A stretch of DNA of 64,000 nucleotides from Myxococcota bacterium. Its GTDB lineage: Bacteria; Myxococcota_A; UBA796; CAJQPC01. Below, piece after piece: positions 42,362 to 52,926 of the stretch. The stretch is taken from NCBI GenBank assembly GCA_036012755.1, contig DASCPX010000127.1:64001-128000 (forward strand), written 5' to 3'. Position 1 is the stretch's first letter, and each line of letters starts with the position of its first letter. The position numbers and the translations under genes are program-made. The notes below the pieces were generated by a model that ran no database searches, was not told the DNA's origin, and worked only from the letters and a program-made list of their open reading frames with translations.

Positions 42362-43183
42362 TCAGGGACTGGTGATCTCGACCATCTCCTTGCCGTAGAC
42401 CTTGAGCAGCGGGCCACCGTTGCCGATGTTGCCGCTGACGTTGGTGCCGGAGTTGGTGCCCTCGACGGTGTGGAGCACGCTCACGCTCCCGCCGGTGGCC
42501 TGGAGCCTGACGTCCGCCGACAGGGGGAGGACCAGCGTGGCGCCGCCCTTGCTCGCGGTGATGCCAGAGGACTTCGTGACGCTGCTGTCCGCTGACAGAT
42601 CGACCTTCACGTCGCCGTCCGGGGCGCGGACGTTGAACTGGCTGTAGCTGCCAGACACCATGATGTCCCCGCTGGTGTTGGCGGCCTTGACGGTCCCATT
42701 GCAGTTGCTGACGGAGATCCAGCCCTTTCGAGCAGTCACCGTGATCCGGGTCTGCTTCGGCAGGGACACCACGAGCGGGACGGTGATGCTCTCGACTCCG
42801 CTGCGGCTCCCCGGGACGATCGTGCTGACCTTGCCCCAGGTCCCCTTGCCCTGGGCCTGGAGCCGGATTCCGTCGCCCACCGCCTGCATGGGCGCTTCCT
42901 TGGTGCCTTCGATGACGAAGTCGATGCGGGCGTTGACCTCCTCTGTGTCCGTGCAGCGCACCGTGATCGGGCCGCCGTAGTGCGTGATGGTCACAGCGGC
43001 GTTGTCGTCGAGCTTCTCGCTGCGCTCCGTGTGGCCGCCGGAGTAGGTCATCGTCGAGGCGGCTGTCTCGCCGCCCAGATCGATGTCGTCGAGATCGATG
43101 TCGAAGTCACCGAACCCGTAGTCTTCTTCGTCATCCTCGGCGAAGGCCGCTCCAGCGAGCGCGATCAACATTGCGAGTGGCAT
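42362..43183 (-). CDS. DUF4097-like beta-strand repeat secreted protein
   Basis: Signal peptide, repeated T.sG.I.V units, GNIGNGGPLL end. Confidence 0.7.
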   Translation of the reverse strand: MPLAMLIALAGAAFAEDDEEDYGFGDFDIDLDDIDLGGETAASTMTYSGGHTERSEKLDDNAAVTITHYGGPITVRCTDTEEVNARIDFVIEGTKEAPMQAVGDGIRLQAQGKGTWGKVSTIVPGSRSGVESITVPLVVSLPKQTRITVTARKGWISVSNCNGTVKAANTSGDIMVSGSYSQFNVRAPDGDVKVDLSADSSVTKSSGITASKGGATLVLPLSADVRLQATGGSVSVLHTVEGTNSGTNVSGNIGNGGPLLKVYGKEMVEITSP

Positions 43184-43268
43184 TGGTTTTCCAGTTTGAA
43201 GTCTGCACTTGGCAGTTTGCCGTGGATCGGGTGCCGCCTGCCGGGAGCTGGCGAGGTTATGTCCCGTG

Positions 43269-44261
43269 ATGCTGCCTGCGATCCCTTACTGCGATCTCCA
43301 CATCCACGTCGGCGCGAGCGTCGCCCCCCACGTCATGTGGTCCATCGCCCACCAGCAAGGCTTCAAGCTCCCCGTCAACAACTACTGGGAGTTCGTCGAC
43401 CTGATCACGGCCAACCCGCGCAAGGTCAAGAGCCTCGATGACTACCTGAAGATCCTCCATGAGTGGACGGAGAAGATCCAGTCTTCGCCGCTGGCGCTCG
43501 AGCGCGCCATCTACGAGATCATCGGCAAGGAGTACCGCGGCTCACGGGTCGAGAAGATCGAGCTCCGCTTCAACCCGATGAAGCGCAACCTGGAAGGCCA
43601 GCGGGACCTCGACCACATCATCCACGCGGCCTTGCGCGGCATGGATCGCGCCTCCTTGGAGTACGGCGTCGAGGCTGGGCTCATCTTCTGCCTCGCGCGC
43701 GAGTTCCCGCCAGAGCAGAACGAGGTCATCCTCGACAAGGCCATCAAGTACCAGGCGCGCGGCGTCGTGGGCATCGACCTCGCCGGCACGGAGACCCACA
43801 CGATCGAGCTGTCGGAGGCCGTCGGGAAGTACGCCGCCATCTTCCAGCGGGCCCGGGAGGCCGACCTCGGCACCACCGTCCACACGGGAGAGACGATCTC
43901 GACCTCGGGCGAGGGCGTCATCGCGGTGCTGAAGCACCTCAAGCCGAACCGCATCGGCCACGGCGTGCGGGCCGCCTACAACGAGGACGCCACGAAGATG
44001 CTCGCTGACACGGGCTGCGTGCTCGAGATCTGCCCGACCTCGAACCTGAACACCCGCGCCATTCGCCACCTCGAGGAGTTCAAGTACATCATCGGCACCT
44101 TCCAGGACGCCGGCGTGCTGTTCACCATCAACACCGACGGCACCTACCTCTGCGAGACGAACATCCAGCGCGAGTTCGCGCTGATGACGGACAGCGGCGT
44201 CTTCGACGTGGCCGCCAGCGAGCGTGCCCGGATGCTCGCGTTCGAGGCGAGCTTCATCTGA
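43269..44261 (+). CDS. adenosine deaminase family protein
   Basis: DLHIH, GIDLAG, TVHTGE, RIGHG, EICPTSN, INTD. Confidence 0.9.
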   Translation: MLPAIPYCDLHIHVGASVAPHVMWSIAHQQGFKLPVNNYWEFVDLITANPRKVKSLDDYLKILHEWTEKIQSSPLALERAIYEIIGKEYRGSRVEKIELRFNPMKRNLEGQRDLDHIIHAALRGMDRASLEYGVEAGLIFCLAREFPPEQNEVILDKAIKYQARGVVGIDLAGTETHTIELSEAVGKYAAIFQRAREADLGTTVHTGETISTSGEGVIAVLKHLKPNRIGHGVRAAYNEDATKMLADTGCVLEICPTSNLNTRAIRHLEEFKYIIGTFQDAGVLFTINTDGTYLCETNIQREFALMTDSGVFDVAASERARMLAFEASFI

Positions 44262-44701
44262 TCCTCCTCGGCGCCGCGCTGGCAGCGACGGCCGAGGTCA
44301 GCCAGGAGCGCGTGATCTCCGCGCCATTGGAGGAGGTCCGCGCCTTTCTGCTGGACCCGGAGGAGGCAGCCTCGCTGACCCCGGACGTAGAGAGCGTGGA
44401 GGTGCTCACCAGCGACACCTGCGATCTGGTCCGCACCACGAACAAGGGGCTGCTCTCCAGCGTCGAGTACGTGGTGAAGCGCTGCTATGCCGACGACGGC
44501 GTACAGGAGACGCTGGTCGAGAGCGAGGACTTCACGGCCTACGAGGCCAGCTACACCCTCACGGCGGTCGACGGCGGCACCAAGGTCGTCTACGACGTGA
44601 CTGTCGGTGTCGACATGCCAGTGCCCGACTGGGCGATCCGCATGGGAGTCGAGCGCTCGACCGCGGCCACGATGGAGGCCCTGGCGGCGCACTTCGATTA
44701 G
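44258..44701 (+). CDS. SRPBCC-family secreted protein (probable CTG start; first canonical start GTG 44312)
   Basis: ISAPLEEVRAFLLDPE...PDVESVE; signal-like ILLGAALA lies upstream of GTG 44312. Confidence 0.7.
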   Translation: MILLGAALAATAEVSQERVISAPLEEVRAFLLDPEEAASLTPDVESVEVLTSDTCDLVRTTNKGLLSSVEYVVKRCYADDGVQETLVESEDFTAYEASYTLTAVDGGTKVVYDVTVGVDMPVPDWAIRMGVERSTAATMEALAAHFD

Positions 44702-44709
44702 GCCCCCCC

Positions 44710-47700
44710 ATGGCACGCCTTGCTTGTGGACTGGATCTTGGAGGGAGCGGCGTCCGCTGCCTCGTCGTCGACCTCGAGACCGGACGACGCTGGAGCGCGC
44801 GACGCCCGCTGAGACTCGTCCCGGCGGGGCCCTGGTCCTGGGATCTGGACCTGGAGGCGACCTGGAGCGCTGCGCTGGCTGTCCTGCGCGGGGCCCTGGA
44901 GGCAGCGGGCAGCGGCGAGGTCGTCGGCATCTCGTCCTCTTGCATGCGCCAGGCGATGGTGGTCCTGGGCTCCGAAGTGGTGCTCCTGGCGACCCCGAAC
45001 ATCGACGCGCGGGGAGCCGGCCAGGCCGAGCAGCTGGCGGAGACCGGCGAGAATCGCCTGCGTCGCACGGGTCGCTGGCCGGACCCTGCCTCCGCCGCCG
45101 CCCGCCTGGTCTGGCTCCGTGACGAGGGCCGCATCGGCCTGGCGCGTCACTTCCTGTCCCTCGGTGACTGGCTCTCCTGGAAGCTCTGCGGGGCGCTGGC
45201 CGCCGAGCGCTCCCAGGCCGGAGAGTCGGGGCTGCTCACCCTCACCGGACGCTGGGACCGAAACGCCATCGAGCAGCTCGAGCTGCCAGTGGACATCTTC
45301 CCCGAGCTCGTCCAGGCCGGCGCCGAGCTCGGTGGCCTGAGCGCCGAGGCGGCCTCGCTCGTCGGGCTCCCGGCCGGAACACCCGTCCACGCAGGAGGTG
45401 GTGACACCCCCTGCGCCCTGCTCGGAGCCGGGGTCGCCCAGCCCGGGCAGGCCGGCATCGTCGCCGGGACCACCTGCCCGATCCAGCACGTGGTCGGCGT
45501 ACCGAAGCCCGAACGACAGCTGCGCCTCGGCCACCACGTCGTCGCCGGACGCTGGCTGCTCGAGAAGAACCAGGTGCTCGCGGGGCAGGTGCTCGGGCAG
45601 CTCGCCGCAGCCTTCTTCGAGGACCACCCGGCCCCGGTCGCTCGACTAATGGAGGTCGCCAAGGACGGGCGGTCCGCCGCGGTCGCCTCCATGGGCGCGA
45701 CCCCCTTCCGCGCGGACCAGCTGAGCCTGCCCGTGATGGGACTGCACCTCTCTCCGTTCCAGACCAGCGACGCCCGGGCGGACCTCGCCCGCGCGGCCGT
45801 CGACGCCGTCTGTCGTGGCATCGCGCAGAACATCCCGGGGGAGCCCGAACAGCTGCGGGTCACCGGGGGGCTCTCACAGAGCCGCTGGTTCGTCGAGCAG
45901 CTCGCCGGACACCTGGGCACGCCCGTGCTCAGGACACTCCGACCCGAGTCCTCGGCCCTGGGCGCCGCGATGCTCGCGTGTCCGGACGGGGTGGCGGCCT
46001 GCGAACACCTCGTCGAGCTGGAGAGCGTGTCTCCCGCCTCTGTGCGCGAGCCCTCCCCGACTCTCCTGAGGGCCTTCGCAGACCTGGAGCCAGAGGTCGC
46101 CGGGGAGCTGGTCAGTGCCTCCTTCGACGACCAGCCGCAGGACATTCCCCACCTGCCAGAGGCGCTGCGCATCTACGTGTCCGCGTCAGTCGACGAGGAC
46201 AGCCTCGCCCGACTGCGCAGCCTGGGAGAGGTGGTCTATGCCCCCTACCGCGAGGTCCAGACCCTGCTGACCGGAGAGGCGCTCGTCGAGGCGCTGCAGG
46301 GGGTCCACGTGTTCGTGACCGAGGTCGACGTGGTCGACCTGGAGGCCCTGGAGGAGCTCCCGCAGCTCCGCGTCATCGCATGCTGCCGCGGTCGCGTCGT
46401 GAACGTCGACGTTGCCTCGTGCACCGCCCTCGGCATCCCGGTCCTGGGTGCGCCTGGGAGAAACGCAGAGGCTGTCGCAGACTTCACCGTCGCTGCCTCG
46501 TTGGCGCTGCTGCGCAAGCTCGTCCCCGCGGATCGCTTCCTTCGAAGCGGTGTCGAGGCCGGCGACATGGGACGCATGGGCATGGCGCACGAGGCCTTCC
46601 AGGGCTTCGAGCTGGGGGGGCGCACGGTGGGCCTGATCGGCTTCGGAGCCGTGGCGCGCGCGGTCGCCAGGCGGCTGAGGTCCTTCGGCTCGCGGGTGAT
46701 CGCTTTCGATCCCTTCGTCCCTGACCAGGTGATCTGGGCAGGAGGTGCGGAGCCCGTCTCGCTGGAGGCGCTCCTTCAGCGGTCGGATGTCGTGTCCCTC
46801 CACGCCGCCGCCACGGACGAGACCCGCGGGATCATCGGCCGCCAGGCCCTCTCGGCGATGAAGGAGAGCGCCCTCTTGATCAACACCGCCCGCGCGGCCC
46901 TCGTCGACCAGGACGCCCTCGTCGATGCCCTGCGCTCCGGTGGGATCGCGGGGGCATGCCTCGATGTGTTCGCGGTAGAGCCGCCAGGCTCCGACGAGCC
47001 CCTGCTGCAGCTCGACAACGTGCTCGCGCTGCCCCACATCGCCGGCAACACCCACGACGTCGGGCGCCACCAGGGCCGCATCGTCGTCGAGGGGCTCGAG
47101 GCGCTGCTTCGCGGGGAGCGCCCGCGGACCCTGCTCAACGACGTCCTCGAGGGCTTCTCCTGGGATCAGAGGCCAGAAGCGGACGCAGAGGAGCTGGAAG
47201 CGCTGCGGGCCGGGCCCGGACCCGGGGTCACCGACCTCGAGATCGCCGCGACAGCGAGCCTGCCCGAGATCTCGATGCCGACCCCGGAGCTCATGACGGA
47301 GCCCGCGCCAGAGTCCGGCTTCGCGGCCCTGGTGGCTGCCTTCTGCGGCCTCGCAGAGTCCGACCCGGACATCCAGGCCTTCGCGACTGGCCGGGACATC
47401 ACGGCGCAGTACCTCGCCCCCGACGCCGACGTCGGCTTCCACATGGTCTTCCGTGACGGCCGGGCGGTGGTGCGGCCGGCCCCCTACGCCGGCAAGCCGG
47501 ACGTGACGGTGAAGATGAACGCAGAGGTCATGGACGGCGTCTTCGGCGGCGAGGTCAACGGCATGAAGGCGGCCATGACCGGGAAGCTCTCGTTCATGGG
47601 CAACACCGTCAAGGCGATGACGATGCAGCGGGTGCAGCCACAGATGACCAGGCAGTGGCTGGCTGCGCGCGAGCGCGTGGGCGAGCTCGACTTCTCGCGC

Positions 47701-48372
47701 CCCGAACCCACCAGGTCCCAGATAAGTCCGATCGAAGGCGACGACGGCATCCTGAGAGGTGCCCTCGCGGCGGGCGTCGGCGAGCTGGTGGAGGCCGGGC
47801 TGATCACCTCCACCGGCGGCAACGTGAGCATCCGGGTCGGACCCGAACGAGCGCTGCTCACTCCGAGCCAGCTCTTCAAGGGCGACCTGCGGCCAGAGCT
47901 GATGGTGCTGGTCGACCTCGACGGGGAGCCCCTGCAGCAGGTGGGCGCAGCGCCGACGAGCGAGCGCATGATCCACTGCTCGATCCTGAAGGCGAGGCCG
48001 GACGTCGGAGCGGTCGTCCACAGCCACGCGCCGATGGCCACGACGCTGGACCTCGCCGGCCTGCCCTTCCTGCCGATCTCGACCGAGGCAGCCTTCGTCG
48101 GAGAGATCCCACGGGTCTGTTTCACGATGCCCGGCACCGACGAGCTCGCAGGGGCGATCGTCCAGGCCCTCGGCAGCGGCAGCGCCGTGATCATGAGCAA
48201 CCACGGCCTCGTCGTCGCGGGCAGCTCGCTTCGGCGCGCCCTGGACCTGACTCACATCATCGAGGACACGGCGGCGAAGCTCATCGACTGCCAGAAGATG
48301 GGCAGGGTCCCTCCGGTGTTGCCCCCCGAGACCGTCGAGATGCTTCAGTCGATCGGCGAACTCATCGCCTGA
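44710..48372 (+). CDS. four-domain fusion: FGGY sugar kinase, D-2-hydroxyacid dehydrogenase, SCP2, class II aldolase
   Basis: GLDLGGSGVR/GGGD/TGGLSQS; GFGAVA/INTAR/LDVF..EP/PHIAG; AAMTGKLSFMGN; GGNVS/PTSE..IH/VHSH/NHG, all in one frame. Confidence 0.88.
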   Translation: MARLACGLDLGGSGVRCLVVDLETGRRWSARRPLRLVPAGPWSWDLDLEATWSAALAVLRGALEAAGSGEVVGISSSCMRQAMVVLGSEVVLLATPNIDARGAGQAEQLAETGENRLRRTGRWPDPASAAARLVWLRDEGRIGLARHFLSLGDWLSWKLCGALAAERSQAGESGLLTLTGRWDRNAIEQLELPVDIFPELVQAGAELGGLSAEAASLVGLPAGTPVHAGGGDTPCALLGAGVAQPGQAGIVAGTTCPIQHVVGVPKPERQLRLGHHVVAGRWLLEKNQVLAGQVLGQLAAAFFEDHPAPVARLMEVAKDGRSAAVASMGATPFRADQLSLPVMGLHLSPFQTSDARADLARAAVDAVCRGIAQNIPGEPEQLRVTGGLSQSRWFVEQLAGHLGTPVLRTLRPESSALGAAMLACPDGVAACEHLVELESVSPASVREPSPTLLRAFADLEPEVAGELVSASFDDQPQDIPHLPEALRIYVSASVDEDSLARLRSLGEVVYAPYREVQTLLTGEALVEALQGVHVFVTEVDVVDLEALEELPQLRVIACCRGRVVNVDVASCTALGIPVLGAPGRNAEAVADFTVAASLALLRKLVPADRFLRSGVEAGDMGRMGMAHEAFQGFELGGRTVGLIGFGAVARAVARRLRSFGSRVIAFDPFVPDQVIWAGGAEPVSLEALLQRSDVVSLHAAATDETRGIIGRQALSAMKESALLINTARAALVDQDALVDALRSGGIAGACLDVFAVEPPGSDEPLLQLDNVLALPHIAGNTHDVGRHQGRIVVEGLEALLRGERPRTLLNDVLEGFSWDQRPEADAEELEALRAGPGPGVTDLEIAATASLPEISMPTPELMTEPAPESGFAALVAAFCGLAESDPDIQAFATGRDITAQYLAPDADVGFHMVFRDGRAVVRPAPYAGKPDVTVKMNAEVMDGVFGGEVNGMKAAMTGKLSFMGNTVKAMTMQRVQPQMTRQWLAARERVGELDFSRPEPTRSQISPIEGDDGILRGALAAGVGELVEAGLITSTGGNVSIRVGPERALLTPSQLFKGDLRPELMVLVDLDGEPLQQVGAAPTSERMIHCSILKARPDVGAVVHSHAPMATTLDLAGLPFLPISTEAAFVGEIPRVCFTMPGTDELAGAIVQALGSGSAVIMSNHGLVVAGSSLRRALDLTHIIEDTAAKLIDCQKMGRVPPVLPPETVEMLQSIGELIA

Positions 48373-48376
48373 GCCC

Positions 48377-49348
48377 TCAGAAGCGCATCGACCAGGTCAG
48401 GCCAGGTCCCTCGTCGGCGAGGAGGATGCCGACACCACCCACCCCGAGACCGACTACCGCCACGCCGGCGCCGGCGAGCACCAGGGTGTTGGTGAGGGTT
48501 CGTGCGGCGTCGAGCTCCGCGACCGTGGAGGCGTCGTCGAAGCCTTGACGCGCCGTGTAGCTGGCGCCGTAGACACCCCCGGCGGCAGCGAGCCCCGCGA
48601 CGCTGGCGACCAGCAGGGGTGTCTTCATCGGCGGACGCTCGCGGGTGACCGTGACGACCTCGTCGGTGGTGTAGCCCCCCGCGAGGACCTCTGGATCGCC
48701 TCGCTTCTTCTTCTTGTTGTCTTCCTTTGCCGCGGCGTCGACGTCCTTCTGCTCGTTGAGGGTCAGGGTCGCGTCCTCGACCAGGTTCGCAGGAAACTCG
48801 TTGCCGACGACGAGCCAGCTGGCGCGCACGGCCCCGTCGCTGCCCACCTGCTGCACGACGTGGTAGCGGCCGGTCGTCGCCTTGGGCTCGTCCAGCAGGC
48901 GGCCGTCGATGACGAGCTTGGAGCCGGAAGGGACGACCAGGCGCATGCCATCGACCGGGTCGCCCGGGAGACCCTCGTAGGCCTTCGCGGCGTCGTAGGT
49001 CTTGTAGAGCGCACTGCCCAGATCCATCGACTCGATGTCGAACTGGTAGGTCGGCTCCAGCTCCCTGGCGACGCGGAACCAGAGGGATGCCTTGTCCGGG
49101 TCACCGCTGTTGAAGCTGTAGACGCCCAGCGCCCTGTAGGTCGCCGCGTACAACGACGGCGTCATGGGCTCGGCCATGCAGAGGATGCCCCCCTCCATGC
49201 GAGTCCCTGCCTGGGTCATCTCGCCGCCGCCTTCGTCGCGCATGCCGTCGGTGATCGCCGTGAGATCCTCGAACAGCAGGTCGGTCGTGTAGACGCCCTC
49301 GCAAGCGCTGGAGGGGGCGGTCAGAGATAGAAGCAGGCCCATGGTCAC
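48377..49348 (-). CDS. secreted/membrane hypothetical protein (TPR-like N-part, C-terminal hydrophobic hairpin)
   Basis: AGGAG SD, signal peptide, FRVARELEP helix, LVIDG, two C-terminal hydrophobic segments. Confidence 0.65.
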   Translation of the reverse strand: MTMGLLLSLTAPSSACEGVYTTDLLFEDLTAITDGMRDEGGGEMTQAGTRMEGGILCMAEPMTPSLYAATYRALGVYSFNSGDPDKASLWFRVARELEPTYQFDIESMDLGSALYKTYDAAKAYEGLPGDPVDGMRLVVPSGSKLVIDGRLLDEPKATTGRYHVVQQVGSDGAVRASWLVVGNEFPANLVEDATLTLNEQKDVDAAAKEDNKKKKRGDPEVLAGGYTTDEVVTVTRERPPMKTPLLVASVAGLAAAGGVYGASYTARQGFDDASTVAELDAARTLTNTLVLAGAGVAVVGLGVGGVGILLADEGPGLTWSMRF

Positions 49349-49363
49349 TCCTGACGGACCAGT

Positions 49364-49879
49364 CTACCCCGGACGAATCCAGGCCACCGGCGTCTCGGCC
49401 TCGACGCTGCCGCCATCGTCCACGCCCCAGCGCTCCAGGGTCCCGGCCTGGTCCGCCTTGATCGGCGTGAAGGTCTTCATGACCTCCATGAGCGCCAGGG
49501 TCTGCAGTCGCTTCACGACAGCTCCGACCTCGACGAAGGGTGGGTCTGCCGGGGTCGGGCGCTGGTAGATCGTCCCGGCCATCGGCGCACGGACGGCGAC
49601 GAGGCCCTCGTGCCCCTCTTGTTCCTCGAGCACGGTCGGGACGTCGGCGCCGAGGAGCCCGATCTCGACGAGCACCTCGCCGTACTGCAGCCAGCCAGCG
49701 GGGAGCACCTCGACGACCTGCCCACCCCCTGCGGGAGCGACGATCTCCAAAGGGCGCCCGAGCCGGACGATCACCCCCAGCACCAGGCCTTCGCGCAGCT
49801 GCGCGCCTCGCTGCACCCGGGGGTCCCAGCGCCCGACCGTGGGGCTGGCGAGGGCCGCGTTCCCCTTCACCGCCTTCAC
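49364..49879 (-). CDS. accB: biotin carboxyl carrier protein
   Basis: [31 protein letters not shown]-coupled. Confidence 0.85.
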
Positions 49880-51594
49880 AGGACCTCCAGATCGTGGATG
49901 GACCAGATGCGAGGGTTCTTGATGGTGCGGTAGCCGATGGACTGGTAGCAACAGGCCACGGCCACCTCGAGCCAGGCCCGCAGCTCGGACAGCGGGACCA
50001 CCTCGTCGGTGTCCATGCGGGCGGCGGCGGCCACCGGGTCCATGTCGGCCTCGATCCGGGCGGCGGTGCGATCCATGCCGGCTTGGATGGCTGCCCGCTC
50101 TACCGGGTCCTGCGTCTCGATCTCGAAGTCGTCGTCGAGCTTGGTGTTGAAGGCGGCGATCGACAGGGTCCGTCCCTCCATGACCGCTTGCCGCGTCAGC
50201 GGCGTGGAGAGCTGCAGCACCGGGTCATAGGGGTGGCCGGCCATCGCGTAGTAGCCGGCGCCCGAGGCCTTGCGCAGCAGCACCGTGATCATCGGCGTCC
50301 GGTTCGTCGAGTTGGCGTAGATGAGCGAGCTCCCGTAGCCCAGCAGGCCCTGGGCCTCGGCCTCCGTCCCGATGTCGAAGCCAGCGACGTCCTGCAGCCA
50401 CACCAGCGGGATGCCGTCGGTGTTGCAGGCGCGGCTGAAGGTCGCCAGCTTGGCGATGCCCTGGCGGTACAAGATGCCGCCAGCGCGCCTCTCGCCGGCA
50501 CGCCCGGGGTGCTCGGTGAGCTCTGGGTTGTTCGCGAGGATGCCGACCCAGAGACCGTCGATGCGGGCGAGGCCGACGACGACCTCCTTGCCGGTGTCGG
50601 GGAGCACCTCGTGGAAGAGCGAGCCGTCCACGAGCCGCGCGATGACCTCGCGCACGTCGTAGACCTCTCGATAGTCGACCGGGAAGAGCGAGGAGAGCTC
50701 CTCCGTTGCGTGCAGCGGAGCCATCGGGTCAGCGCCGTGGCGGTAGTAGTCGGCCCCGGAGGAGGGCAACCTCGCCACGTCGTCGCGGATTCGGCGGAGG
50801 CAGATTTCGTCGCCCGGGACGCGCACGTCAGCGCAGCCGGAGCGTCCGACGTGGACCTCTGGCCCGCCGATGTCGAGGCTCGTGAGCTTGAGTGACTTCG
50901 CGCCCTTGATGAGCGCCGCGCCGGCGATGACCATGTAGGCCCGCTCGGTCATGTAGACGCGGTCGCTGATGATGGGCATGTACCCGCCACCGGCGATGCA
51001 GTCTCCGAAGACACCGGCGATCTGCGGCACCCCCGCCGCCGAGAGTCGGGCGTTCTTCGTGAAGATGTGGCCGGCTCCCCTCCGACCCGGGAAGGAGTTC
51101 GCCTGCTCCGGCAGGAACAGGCCCGAGCAGTCGACGAGGTAGATCATCGGCAGGCGCAGGCGCAGGCCGATCTCCTGGGCTCGCTGGATCTTCTCCGGTG
51201 TGCGCGGCCACCACGAGCCGCTGGCGACGGTGTTGTCGTTCGCGACGAGCACGGTCCAGCGGCCGTGGACCTTCACGAAGGCGGTCACGACACCGGCTCC
51301 CGGGGCGACTCGGCGGCTGCCCGCGAACTCACGACCCCAGTTCACGAGGCTGCCGAAGGGGAAGACGCGGGTCCCCTCGTCCTTGAGGAGGTCGATGCGC
51401 TCCCAGGTCGTCAGCTTCCCCTTGTCGTGCACACGCTCGACGTACTTCGGGCCCCAGCCGGCCCGCACGACCGCGAGCTTGTCCGCCAGGGCTCCGTCGA
51501 GCTCCGCCATGCGGGCTGCCTTGGCCCGCACATCGGCGTCACCGAGCAGCTCGTCCAGCGGTCGACCGATGGGCGACAGGGGCGTGCGGGCCAT
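49876..51594 (-). CDS. acyl-CoA carboxylase carboxyltransferase subunit (MCC/PCC-beta-like)
   Basis: [40 protein letters not shown]. Confidence 0.9.
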
Positions 51595-52926
51595 CTACAG
51601 CATCTCCTCCAGCGTGCTCGTGTCGTAGTCGCCCGAGACGAAGGGCGGGTGGGACAGCAGTCGCTGGTGCAGCGGGATCGTGGTGTCGACGCCCTCGATG
51701 GTGGTCTCCGCCAGGGCCTCGCCGAGGCGGTCGAGGGCCTCTGGACGGGTCGGGGCGTGCACGATGAGCTTGGCGATCATCGAGTCGTAGTGGGGTGAGA
51801 TCGTGTCGCCGACGCGCAGGTGGGTGTCGACCCGAATCCCCTCGCCCGTCGGCCACTGCAGCTTCGTGATGGTCCCGGGACATGGCCGGAAGGTCTCGGG
51901 GTCCTCTGCGTTGATGCGGACCTCGATGGCGTGCCCGTCTGCCTTCACCTGGTCCTGGGTCAACGGCAGGGGCTGGTTGGCAGCGACCCGGAGCTGCAGC
52001 TCCACGAGGTCGAGGCCGCAGACGGCCTCGCTCACCGGGTGCTCGACCTGGAGCCGGGTGTTCATCTCCATGAACCAGAGGTGCCCGTCCTGCCCGCGCA
52101 GCATCTCGATGGTGCCGGCGTTGCGGTAGCCGGCGCGCGCGGCGATGCCGGCGACGAGCCCACCGATCTCCGCGCGCTCGTCCGGGCTCAGGGCGACCGA
52201 CGGCGACTCTTCGAGCAGCTTCTGGTGCCGCCGCTGGATCGAACACTCTCGCTCACCCAGGTGGATGCCCCGACCCTCTGAGTCGACGATCACCTGGAAC
52301 TCGATGTGGCGTCCGCCGGTGATCAGCTTCTCCAGGTAGAGGCGCCCGTCGCCGAAAGCGGCGGTGGACTCGGCGGTGGCGCTGTCGAAGGCGGCTTCGA
52401 GCTCTTCAGGGGCGTAGACACGCCGCATGCCACGTCCCCCTCCCCCGGAGGCCGCCTTCAGCAAGACCGGGTACCCGGCCTGCGCTGCAAAGGACCTGGC
52501 CTCGTCGAGTCCGACCGGGCCGGGAGAGCCGGGGATCAGCGGCATGCCGAGCTCCGCCATCGTCGAGCGCGCCGCGACCTTGTCTCCCATCAACCGGATC
52601 AGCGAGCTCGTCGGGCCGACGAAGGAGATGCCCAGGGCTTCGCAGCGGGCGGCGAAGGTGGCGTTCTCGGCGAGGAAGCCCCAGCCCGGGTGCACCGCCG
52701 TACAGCCCGTGTGGCGAGCCACCTCGAGCACGGCGTCCTGGTCCAGGTAGCTCAGCGCCGAGCGCGGAGGCCCGATGACGACGACATCGTCAGCTTCCTC
52801 GAGCCAGCCGAGGTCTCGGTCCGCCGTGGATGCCACCACGACGACCTCGACCCCCATGCGCTTGCAGGTGCGCGTGACCCGCGCGGCGACCTCGCCGCGA
52901 TTGGCGATGAGCAGACGCCGGAACAC
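51595..52926 (-). CDS. accC: biotin carboxylase
   Basis: [55 protein letters not shown]. Confidence 0.93.

Follow-up and report, generated by a model that had tools for sequence, protein, structure and literature searches.

In the L-fucose/D-arabinose route (FucI, FucK, FucA), an FGGY kinase and a class II aldolase lead to dihydroxyacetone phosphate (DHAP). The 5-deoxyribose DHAP shunt (DrdK-DrdI-DrdA) proceeds, according to the available part of PMC6079011, by phosphorylation at C1 and class II aldol cleavage of a 5-substituted (3R,4R) ribulose 1-phosphate. Autoinducer 2 (AI-2) catabolism involves LsrK, LsrG and LsrF, and the biosynthesis of hopanoid side chains involves HpnH, HpnG, HpnO and HpnA (accessible text of PMC12583986). 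All four systems share features with a gene located in the window, by which we mean the whole 64,000-nucleotide stretch of Myxococcota DNA that was analysed. This gene encodes, in a single polypeptide, an FGGY kinase (K), a D-2-hydroxyacid dehydrogenase (D), an SCP2 domain (S) and a class II aldolase (A), and will be called the K-D-S-A fusion. Widespread and unstudied, it varies the kinase-to-aldolase DHAP logic in a form suited to a lipid substrate. The enzyme probably removes a three-carbon sugar-phosphate from the polar tail of membrane lipids, hopanoids being the best candidates; the protein would be a catabolic head-group stripper of a lipid-linked D-ribitol unit, most likely the C35 bacteriohopanepolyol side chain.

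The fusion departs from each of these systems. Its kinase is of the FGGY/LsrK type, whereas that of the DHAP shunt resembles methylthioribose (MTR) kinase; an NAD oxidoreductase takes the place of the shunt's isomerase, and the SCP2 domain comes in addition. No nucleoside phosphorylase, MTR kinase or MtnA-type isomerase was found among annotated recurring neighbours of the family, so that the fusion does not belong to the 5-deoxyadenosine/methylthioadenosine DHAP shunts. Compared to the fucose/arabinose route, whose FucA has the catalytic Glu, the metal His triad and the phosphate site in common with A, the fusion has a lipid-binding domain and no isomerase, and stays below the FucK and fucA cut-offs. 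With AI-2 catabolism the family shares a kinase nearest to LsrK and, at 5 of the 160 loci analysed, an LsrR-like regulator, but an aldolase and a dehydrogenase replace LsrG and LsrF. HpnO-clade genes and HpnA genes above their cut-off are found in family loci; in contrast to the biosynthetic ones, they belong to genomes devoid of cyclase, and the direction of the chemistry appears reversed. Finally, a mycobacterial locus (L079:8639-11622) harbours K, D (43% to the window) and A as a split, SCP2-free cluster with a divergent kinase, and its aldolase passes the PRK05874 model (444 bits for a cut-off of 308). We take this cluster to resemble the M. tuberculosis xylB/serA2/fucA genes (Rv0727c-Rv0729); our literature search found no paper naming two locus tags of the latter.

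The fusion gene and its family

The preliminary description of this locus had proposed an open reading frame (ORF) of about 1220 aa joining the four domains, with an intact R/E/H set in the dehydrogenase and a Zn class II aldolase, and had envisaged that the fusion might be an assembly artefact. The ORF is real and stop-free in translation (Table 1), and Pfam located FGGY_N at residues 5-239, FGGY_C at 250-424, 2-Hacid_dh at 493-806, 2-Hacid_dh_C at 595-778 and Aldolase_II at 1020-1189. A homologue search yielded 376 proteins at E ≤ 0.001 among 8000 candidates. The best 120 of these 376, used for all conservation counts below (119 proteins besides that of the window), all had the same Pfam set; the order was K-D-S-A in 119 of the 120 aligned and K-D-S-S-A in the remaining one. 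Relative to its nearest relative, at locus L092 (75% identical), dN/dS was 0.21 for D, 0.31 for S and 0.16 for A, the kinase lying outside the covered part: D, S and A are under purifying selection. Based on the conserved order, this selection and the fact that one public contig (possibly the source of this DNA) spans the whole stretch, the assembly artefact was rejected. Short exact pieces of the stretch were also found in two other studies, and large shares of it in marine metagenomes. Between 46557 and 48095, short stretches match, with the same spacing and in all four marine runs, contigs of another organism with deeper coverage, so that these samples contain a further member of the family. 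We saw no clear composition shift that would mark a transfer of the fusion, and a promoter and terminator scan of 43000-48600 gave none.

Table 1. Coordinates of the fusion gene, its domains and the two genes upstream (positions in the window).
Feature	Position	Strand	Basis
Four-domain fusion gene K-D-S-A, 1220 aa	44710..48372	+	ORF, Pfam, family alignment
K: FGGY kinase, closest to LsrK	44722..45981	+	Pfam, NCBIfam, PDB comparison of L001
D: D-2-hydroxyacid-dehydrogenase-fold oxidoreductase	46168..47142	+	R728/E757/H776 triad, NAD-type D667
S: SCP2 lipid-binding domain	47323..47664	+	Pfam 909-975; weak PDB matches all SCP2 domains; atlas lead 0.88
A: class II aldolase	47755..48372	+	Catalytic E1085; metal H1104/H1106/H1165; phosphate-site T1035/N1038/T1051/S1084 kept
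Adenosine-deaminase-family gene, vertically inherited neighbour outside the system	43269..44261	+	Pfam A_deaminase; TIGR01430 197 bits, below the 216.55 cut-off
SRPBCC protein (Polyketide_cyc2)	44258 or 44312..44701	+	Pfam; ends 8 nt before the fusion

The aldolase is the domain whose chemistry is easiest to read. It is a class II aldolase of the FucA/DrdA type by its metal His triad, catalytic Glu and DHAP phosphate site, with E1085, H1104, H1106 and H1165 invariant in 119/119 proteins. Its best PDB match (81 bits) is 6BTD, i.e. DrdA, an enzyme of 5-deoxyribose disposal that splits 5-deoxyribulose 1-phosphate into DHAP and acetaldehyde (available sections of PMC6079011). It is nevertheless no orthologue of the known enzymes, as none of the 25 NCBIfam models listed, among them FucA, DrdA, OtnC, MtnB and AraD, reached its cut-off (fucA: 74 bits, cut-off 400). 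The MtnB model covers only the first half of A (68 bits), whereas aldolase models match over the full length. The positions of FucA Tyr113 and Phe131 presumably line the aldehyde pocket. DrdA is aromatic at both, unlike A, which has T1125 (Thr in 116/119) and P1141 (Pro in 119/119); judged from the alignment, the residues of A would thus be smaller at two pocket positions. Residue 1126 is acidic (E/D) in all 119.

K belongs to the FGGY kinases, with FGGY_N and FGGY_C over the Pfam cut-offs. It retains the catalytic D9 and D232 as well as G11, R80, D99 and R101, and its C-terminal linker helix is shortened. Against the PDB, the kinase of family member L001 scored 236 bits with LsrK and 126 with glycerol kinase. 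On the NCBIfam models, K of the window obtained 133 bits with the LsrK equivalog (cut-off 528) and 58 with FucK (cut-off 471), and no lsrB/F/G-type cluster was seen among recurring neighbours of the family. LsrK phosphorylates a terminal CH2OH and accepts C1-alkyl analogues of 4,5-dihydroxy-2,3-pentanedione (DPD), as stated in the part of PMC3794749 at hand.

D has the catalytic triad and Rossmann NAD motif of the D-2-hydroxyacid dehydrogenases (R728, E757, H776, G644, G646 and D667, all in 119/119), so that the R/E/H set is intact. Its carboxylate loop is altered, with an invariant C559-R560. According to the accessible text of PMC6303947, the carboxylate nest of these dehydrogenases is made of the Val72-Gly73 amides, Gly231 follows the Arg, and in some SerA types an Arg of the carboxylate loop touches the substrate. 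In D, the Gly after the catalytic Arg (Gly231 equivalent) is Ala or Ser in 119/119. In an ungapped alignment, position 562, which is never Gly, falls on Gly73; a one-residue shift brings G561 (108/119) there. One may guess that R560 binds phosphate. The best solved relatives of D are glyoxylate/hydroxypyruvate reductases.

S scored 42.7 bits for a Pfam cut-off of 21.3. The SCP2 domain, left unexplained in the preliminary description, is not a stray one: in the fully split operons of the family it stands as a separate gene. Its persistence there suggests that S has a function in the system and that the substrate is a lipid. The share of family-conserved sites changed in the window protein is 17/86 for K, 10/133 for D, 5/24 for S and 5/67 for A.

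More generally, the family comprises at least 80 genome loci and at least 80 metagenome loci, 160 being analysed (family profiles run on picked ORFs gave the architectures, and tblastn with a single representative per gene type gave the neighbours; the neighbour counts are raw, include kin and have no lipid-gene background rate). Named carriers include Anaerolineae, Myxococcota, Halioglobus, Syntrophaceae/Smithellaceae, Spirochaetales, Actinomycetota, Binatia, Thorarchaeota and Thermofilaceae, and among cultured non-pathogens are Bellilinea caldifistulae, Halioglobus japonicus and Ornatilinea apprima. Exactly one K-D-S-A gene was found in 59 of the 160 loci, the others having K-D, K-D plus A, D-K(-A), or fully split S-D-K-A and D-S-K-A operons. 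As split operons keep SCP2 as its own gene, the fusion is optional, and the channelling that had been proposed is not required. The most frequent neighbours were genes for P450 (24 loci), acyl-CoA ligase (20), aldehyde:ferredoxin oxidoreductase (AOR, 17), acyl-CoA dehydrogenase (17), Rieske oxygenase (12), Ltp2-like thiolase (9) and Zn-dependent dehydrogenase (9); in L198 and L199 an aldehyde dehydrogenase (ALDH) gene lies directly upstream. The best PDB matches of the P450 neighbour were mixed, and no steroid family could be assigned; the M28 neighbour matched generic aminopeptidases only. At seven Halioglobus-type loci (L035, L039, L040, L051, L054, L115, L120) a glyoxalase-fold gene directly follows the fusion, and in most of them Rieske oxygenase and amidohydrolase genes are divergent upstream of it.

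Hopanoid genes at family loci and a proposed route

A block comprising an HpnO-family class III aminotransferase, an M28 hydrolase and HpnA was found in 6 of the 160 loci, and also in L191 and L192. L191 displays all of it in a single run: GntR, S, D, K, A, AOR, HpnO, M28, HpnA. In a tree of 170 D sequences the block occurs in four separate branches, and the window gene is sister (0.97) to one of these four, an Anaerolineae branch with L093, L192, L001 and L021. All six neighbouring HpnA genes scanned were over the TIGR03466 cut-off (419-446 bits versus 368). No curated HpnO model appeared in the scan of the neighbouring aminotransferases, and their assignment was made by phylogeny. The three best plasmid matches of the pathway-linked aminotransferase were Streptomyces genes (50% identity), and the one whose region was read is the last gene of an hpnC-hpnD-hpnE-shc-hpnH operon. 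In a 61-sequence tree, the pathway-linked aminotransferases form one clade (1.0), sister to this Streptomyces operon copy (0.72); both nest with Thermoleophilia copies (0.90), PigE-like and Rhizobium relatives remaining outside. One Thermoleophilia copy of the HpnO clade follows an shc-hpnCDEGH operon. The aminotransferases of L031 and L041 (28% identity, omega-transaminase models) were dropped as HpnO candidates.

The distribution of these genes was then compared with that of squalene-hopene cyclase. For the 251 Anaerolineae genomes, a D domain match stood for the pathway: 27 matched and 21 were counted as members, the six left out having E values of about 1e-71 to 1e-73 (the one that was read, in G301, belongs to another family). 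An HpnO-like gene (at least 62%) was present in 9/251; 8 of these 9 had the pathway, a figure unchanged with all 27 matches, and none had a cyclase. The ninth gene shares its contig, 4.3 kb long, with AOR and M28 genes. The cyclase was found in 11/251 genomes, none of which had the pathway or an HpnO-like gene. HpnA over its cut-off occurred in 16/251, namely 7 cyclase genomes (6 of them with the gene beside shc), 7 pathway genomes and 2 with neither (G117:C33:34751-35731 and G074:C18:48758-49741). Among 201 Thermoleophilia genomes, the pathway-type HpnO was found in 4, three with K/D/A and without cyclase, the fourth with a cyclase and no D match; the other HpnO copies went with a cyclase in 25/31 cases, versus 47/201 genomes overall. 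Fisher tests of co-occurrence gave p = 5e-9 to 5e-8. The organisms with pathway-linked HpnO and HpnA appear unable to make hopanoids. Since these genes are found in cyclase-less genomes, where their neighbours encode a kinase, an aldolase and an enzyme that oxidises aldehydes, the direction of the side-chain enzymes appears to be reversed there. The window genome (G000, 96% complete) gave no cyclase match, which fits a hopanoid consumer.

In PMC12583986, as far as its text was available, the side chain of bacteriohopanetetrol (BHT) derives from a 5'-deoxyadenosyl radical via ribosylhopane. With this origin, BHT would be a 5-deoxy-pentitol (ribitol) carrying the hopane on C5. We give an even chance to a scheme in which BHT is phosphorylated, oxidised and aldol-cleaved to yield DHAP and a C32 hopanoid aldehyde, much as in the 5-deoxyribose DHAP shunt but on a substrate that bears a lipid. 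S would hold the hopane ring system. K would phosphorylate the terminal C35-OH and D would oxidise C34 to a ketone, in either order, giving 5-hopanyl-5-deoxyribulose 1-phosphate, and A would cleave C32-C33 to DHAP and bishomohopan-32-al, by analogy with DrdA. A neighbouring AOR or ALDH could turn the C32 aldehyde into the C32 acid, which aerobes would degrade further with CoA ligases, acyl-CoA dehydrogenases and P450. In Anaerolineae and Thermoleophilia the route would be fed by the M28 hydrolase, the HpnO-family aminotransferase and two kinds of reductase (HpnA-family and Zn-dependent), a module that would convert (N-acyl) aminotriol to BHT by reversing the biosynthesis of the side chain. A fermenter would gain DHAP, ammonium and reducing power, and leave the rings behind.

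Hopanoids are among the most used lipid biomarkers. In one anoxic deposit the C32 acid was the most abundant hopanoic acid (PMC11884234, in the part available), and hopanoic acids have been ascribed to oxidative cleavage of vicinal diols, with no enzyme named in the accessible text of PMC4339782. Our literature search, which covered sources other than subscription journals and supplements, found neither this architecture nor genes for hopanoid side-chain catabolism described. We tentatively propose, with somewhat less than even confidence, that bacteriohopanepolyol side chains are broken down to DHAP and a C32 hopanoid aldehyde or acid by scavengers and predators that make no hopanoids themselves (Anaerolineae, myxobacteria, Halioglobus, Spirochaetales, Thorarchaeota), with D re-purposed for a polyol phosphate. 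If true, this would be the first gene-level route to the shortened hopanoids of sediments, where C32 geohopanoids would partly be a gene-encoded microbial waste product. It could also assign a reaction to HpnA, and lipid aldehydes of large size would have an aldolase that handles them. The named gene set in cultured carriers makes biological side-chain shortening testable.

Two observations concern hopanoid genes at individual loci. In L038 (8123-11021), the fusion has genes for squalene-hopene cyclase and dxr converging on it, the cyclase gene at a distance of 2.7 kb; the contig is labelled Spirochaetales, a group that to our knowledge is seldom associated with hopanoids. HpnA is fused to the Zn-dependent dehydrogenase in L018:16820-19122, L244:13227-15530 and L245:11329-13635, and elsewhere this dehydrogenase gene stands directly before the fusion gene; the HpnA-dehydrogenase fusion is a possible lead to the missing ribosylhopane/BHT oxidoreductase.

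Which substrate?

Several results weigh against hopanoid stripping. Hopanoid-family genes are near only 7 of the 160 loci, and S was detected in only 91; S-less K-D, K-D plus A and D-K(-A) forms remain common when only the 101 loci with flanking DNA on both sides are considered. The SCP2-free members, the SorC/LsrR-type regulators (5 loci) and the sugar ABC permease (1 locus) suggest soluble sugars as the substrates of some members. The window's own kinase obtained 499 bits on the family profile, below all 118 non-kin members (minimum 558), and may be impaired or re-specified. Its genome has no HpnO orthologue (best 33-34%), no HpnA over the cut-off (260 bits), and no M28 hydrolase, Zn-dehydrogenase or P450 of the linked type, so that it could use free BHT at most. 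In the available part of PMC6303947 we saw no 2-hydroxyacid dehydrogenase that acts on a polyol other than an acid. PMC12583986, in its accessible sections, describes HpnO as hard to tell from other aminotransferases, and the function of HpnA and the ribosylhopane-to-BHT enzyme as open questions. An unrelated phosphonate cluster of Rhizobium also contains an M28 gene next to an aminotransferase of 41% identity. The Fisher values overstate the association, as the counts include kin and the chosen centre genome. Incompleteness of metagenome-assembled genomes and shared ancestry weaken the co-occurrence pattern but do not remove it.

The same chemistry could act mainly on lipid-linked polyols other than hopanoids, such as a phytosphingosine-type base (first deacylated by M28, then deaminated), alkyl-tetrols, or a wide variety of such tails. 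Phytosphingosine is D-ribo, and SCP2, CoA ligases, acyl-CoA dehydrogenases and aldehyde oxidisers would suit any long-chain aldehyde product. Carriers such as Syntrophaceae/Smithellaceae, Halioglobus and predators, and the 153 loci with no hopanoid gene, agree with this as well. However, a sphingoid base is already a 2-ketone once transaminated, which would leave D, the most constant part, idle, and two separate neighbour genes map to hopanoid families that elsewhere track the cyclase; we therefore see this option as somewhat unlikely. A soluble substrate, AI-2/DPD or a 5-deoxy-, methylthio- or ribityl-type pentitol, is in our view less probable again. K would then act as an LsrK-like kinase, D would do the redox step, the cleavage would give DHAP and a small aldehyde, and SCP2 would be structural or regulatory. 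It draws on the proximity of K to LsrK, on the regulators and permease just mentioned, on one RpiB gene and on the many SCP2-free operons, including the mycobacterial cluster. It meets the low LsrK score, the lack of an lsrB/F/G-type cluster and the purifying selection on an SCP2 domain that is also kept as a free gene, and leaves HpnO and HpnA unexplained. Such a reading may hold for the SCP2-free branches. In three loci of anaerobic Actinomycetota from one of them (L014, L015, L122), the K-D genes adjoin corrinoid methyltransferase genes (MtaA-like and corrinoid protein), hinting at a methylated substrate.

A hopanoid-type substrate might also be processed with the steps in a different sequence or in the opposite sense. 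In one version, cleavage of a 34-oxo-35-oic acid would release hydroxypyruvate, to be reduced to glycerate by D and phosphorylated by K; in others, A would be an MtnB-like dehydratase, or the module would build an amino-polyol lipid from DHAP and a fatty aldehyde. The reductase relatives of D, the acidic residue 1126 and a LuxC-family acyl-CoA reductase divergent from the fusion in L018 and L244 speak for it. It is improbable, in that A keeps the DHAP phosphate site and matches the MtnB model over half its length only, and that the kinase and the GntR/TetR/SorC regulators point to catabolism. Far less credible is nucleoside salvage fed by the adjacent adenosine deaminase. The shared strand, the tight spacing in the window genome and the DrdA-like aldolase gave it some appeal. 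However, the deaminase occurs in 0/160 family loci (with 1.5 kb or more of upstream DNA in 121 cases), a search of 30 relatives, where the deaminase is ancestral, gave single-domain paralogues only and no fusion, and the salvage enzymes are missing from the annotated recurring neighbours. Of the pathway first suggested, for a nucleoside-derived or lipid-linked sugar, the lipid-linked half, with phosphorylation, oxidation and cleavage by a DrdA-like domain, thus fares better in the light of sequence comparison, and the nucleoside half is not kept.

Genes flanking the fusion

The deaminase and the SRPBCC ORF do lie tightly and directly upstream of the fusion on the same strand, as had been noted. 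The deaminase is present in 15 of the 21 genomes searched, with full-length relatives 69-86% identical, and a divergent DUF4097 gene accompanies it in the loci of 6/13 relatives. In none of these 13 was SRPBCC or the fusion found behind it, within 1.5 kb downstream (in one locus the sequence stops with the deaminase gene). The fusion appears to have been inserted after a deaminase gene of ancestral origin; the deaminase is a bystander, and its link to the pathway as a partner is not conserved.

The window's SRPBCC gene likewise had no match in the 160 loci. SRPBCC genes do stand directly before D in 6 of them, without detectable similarity to that of the window, and the comparison with the L046 copy gave no significant match. 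If translation starts at the CTG overlapping the deaminase stop (44258-44261), the N-terminus is hydrophobic and, by eye, signal-peptide-like; a paralogue on contig C9 has a similar start, also by eye. The window's copy may therefore begin with a signal peptide. Downstream of the fusion, at 49364-52926 on the minus strand, lie genes identified by eye as the biotin carrier, carboxyltransferase and biotin carboxylase of an acyl-CoA carboxylase, and the same gene order is kept in L092.

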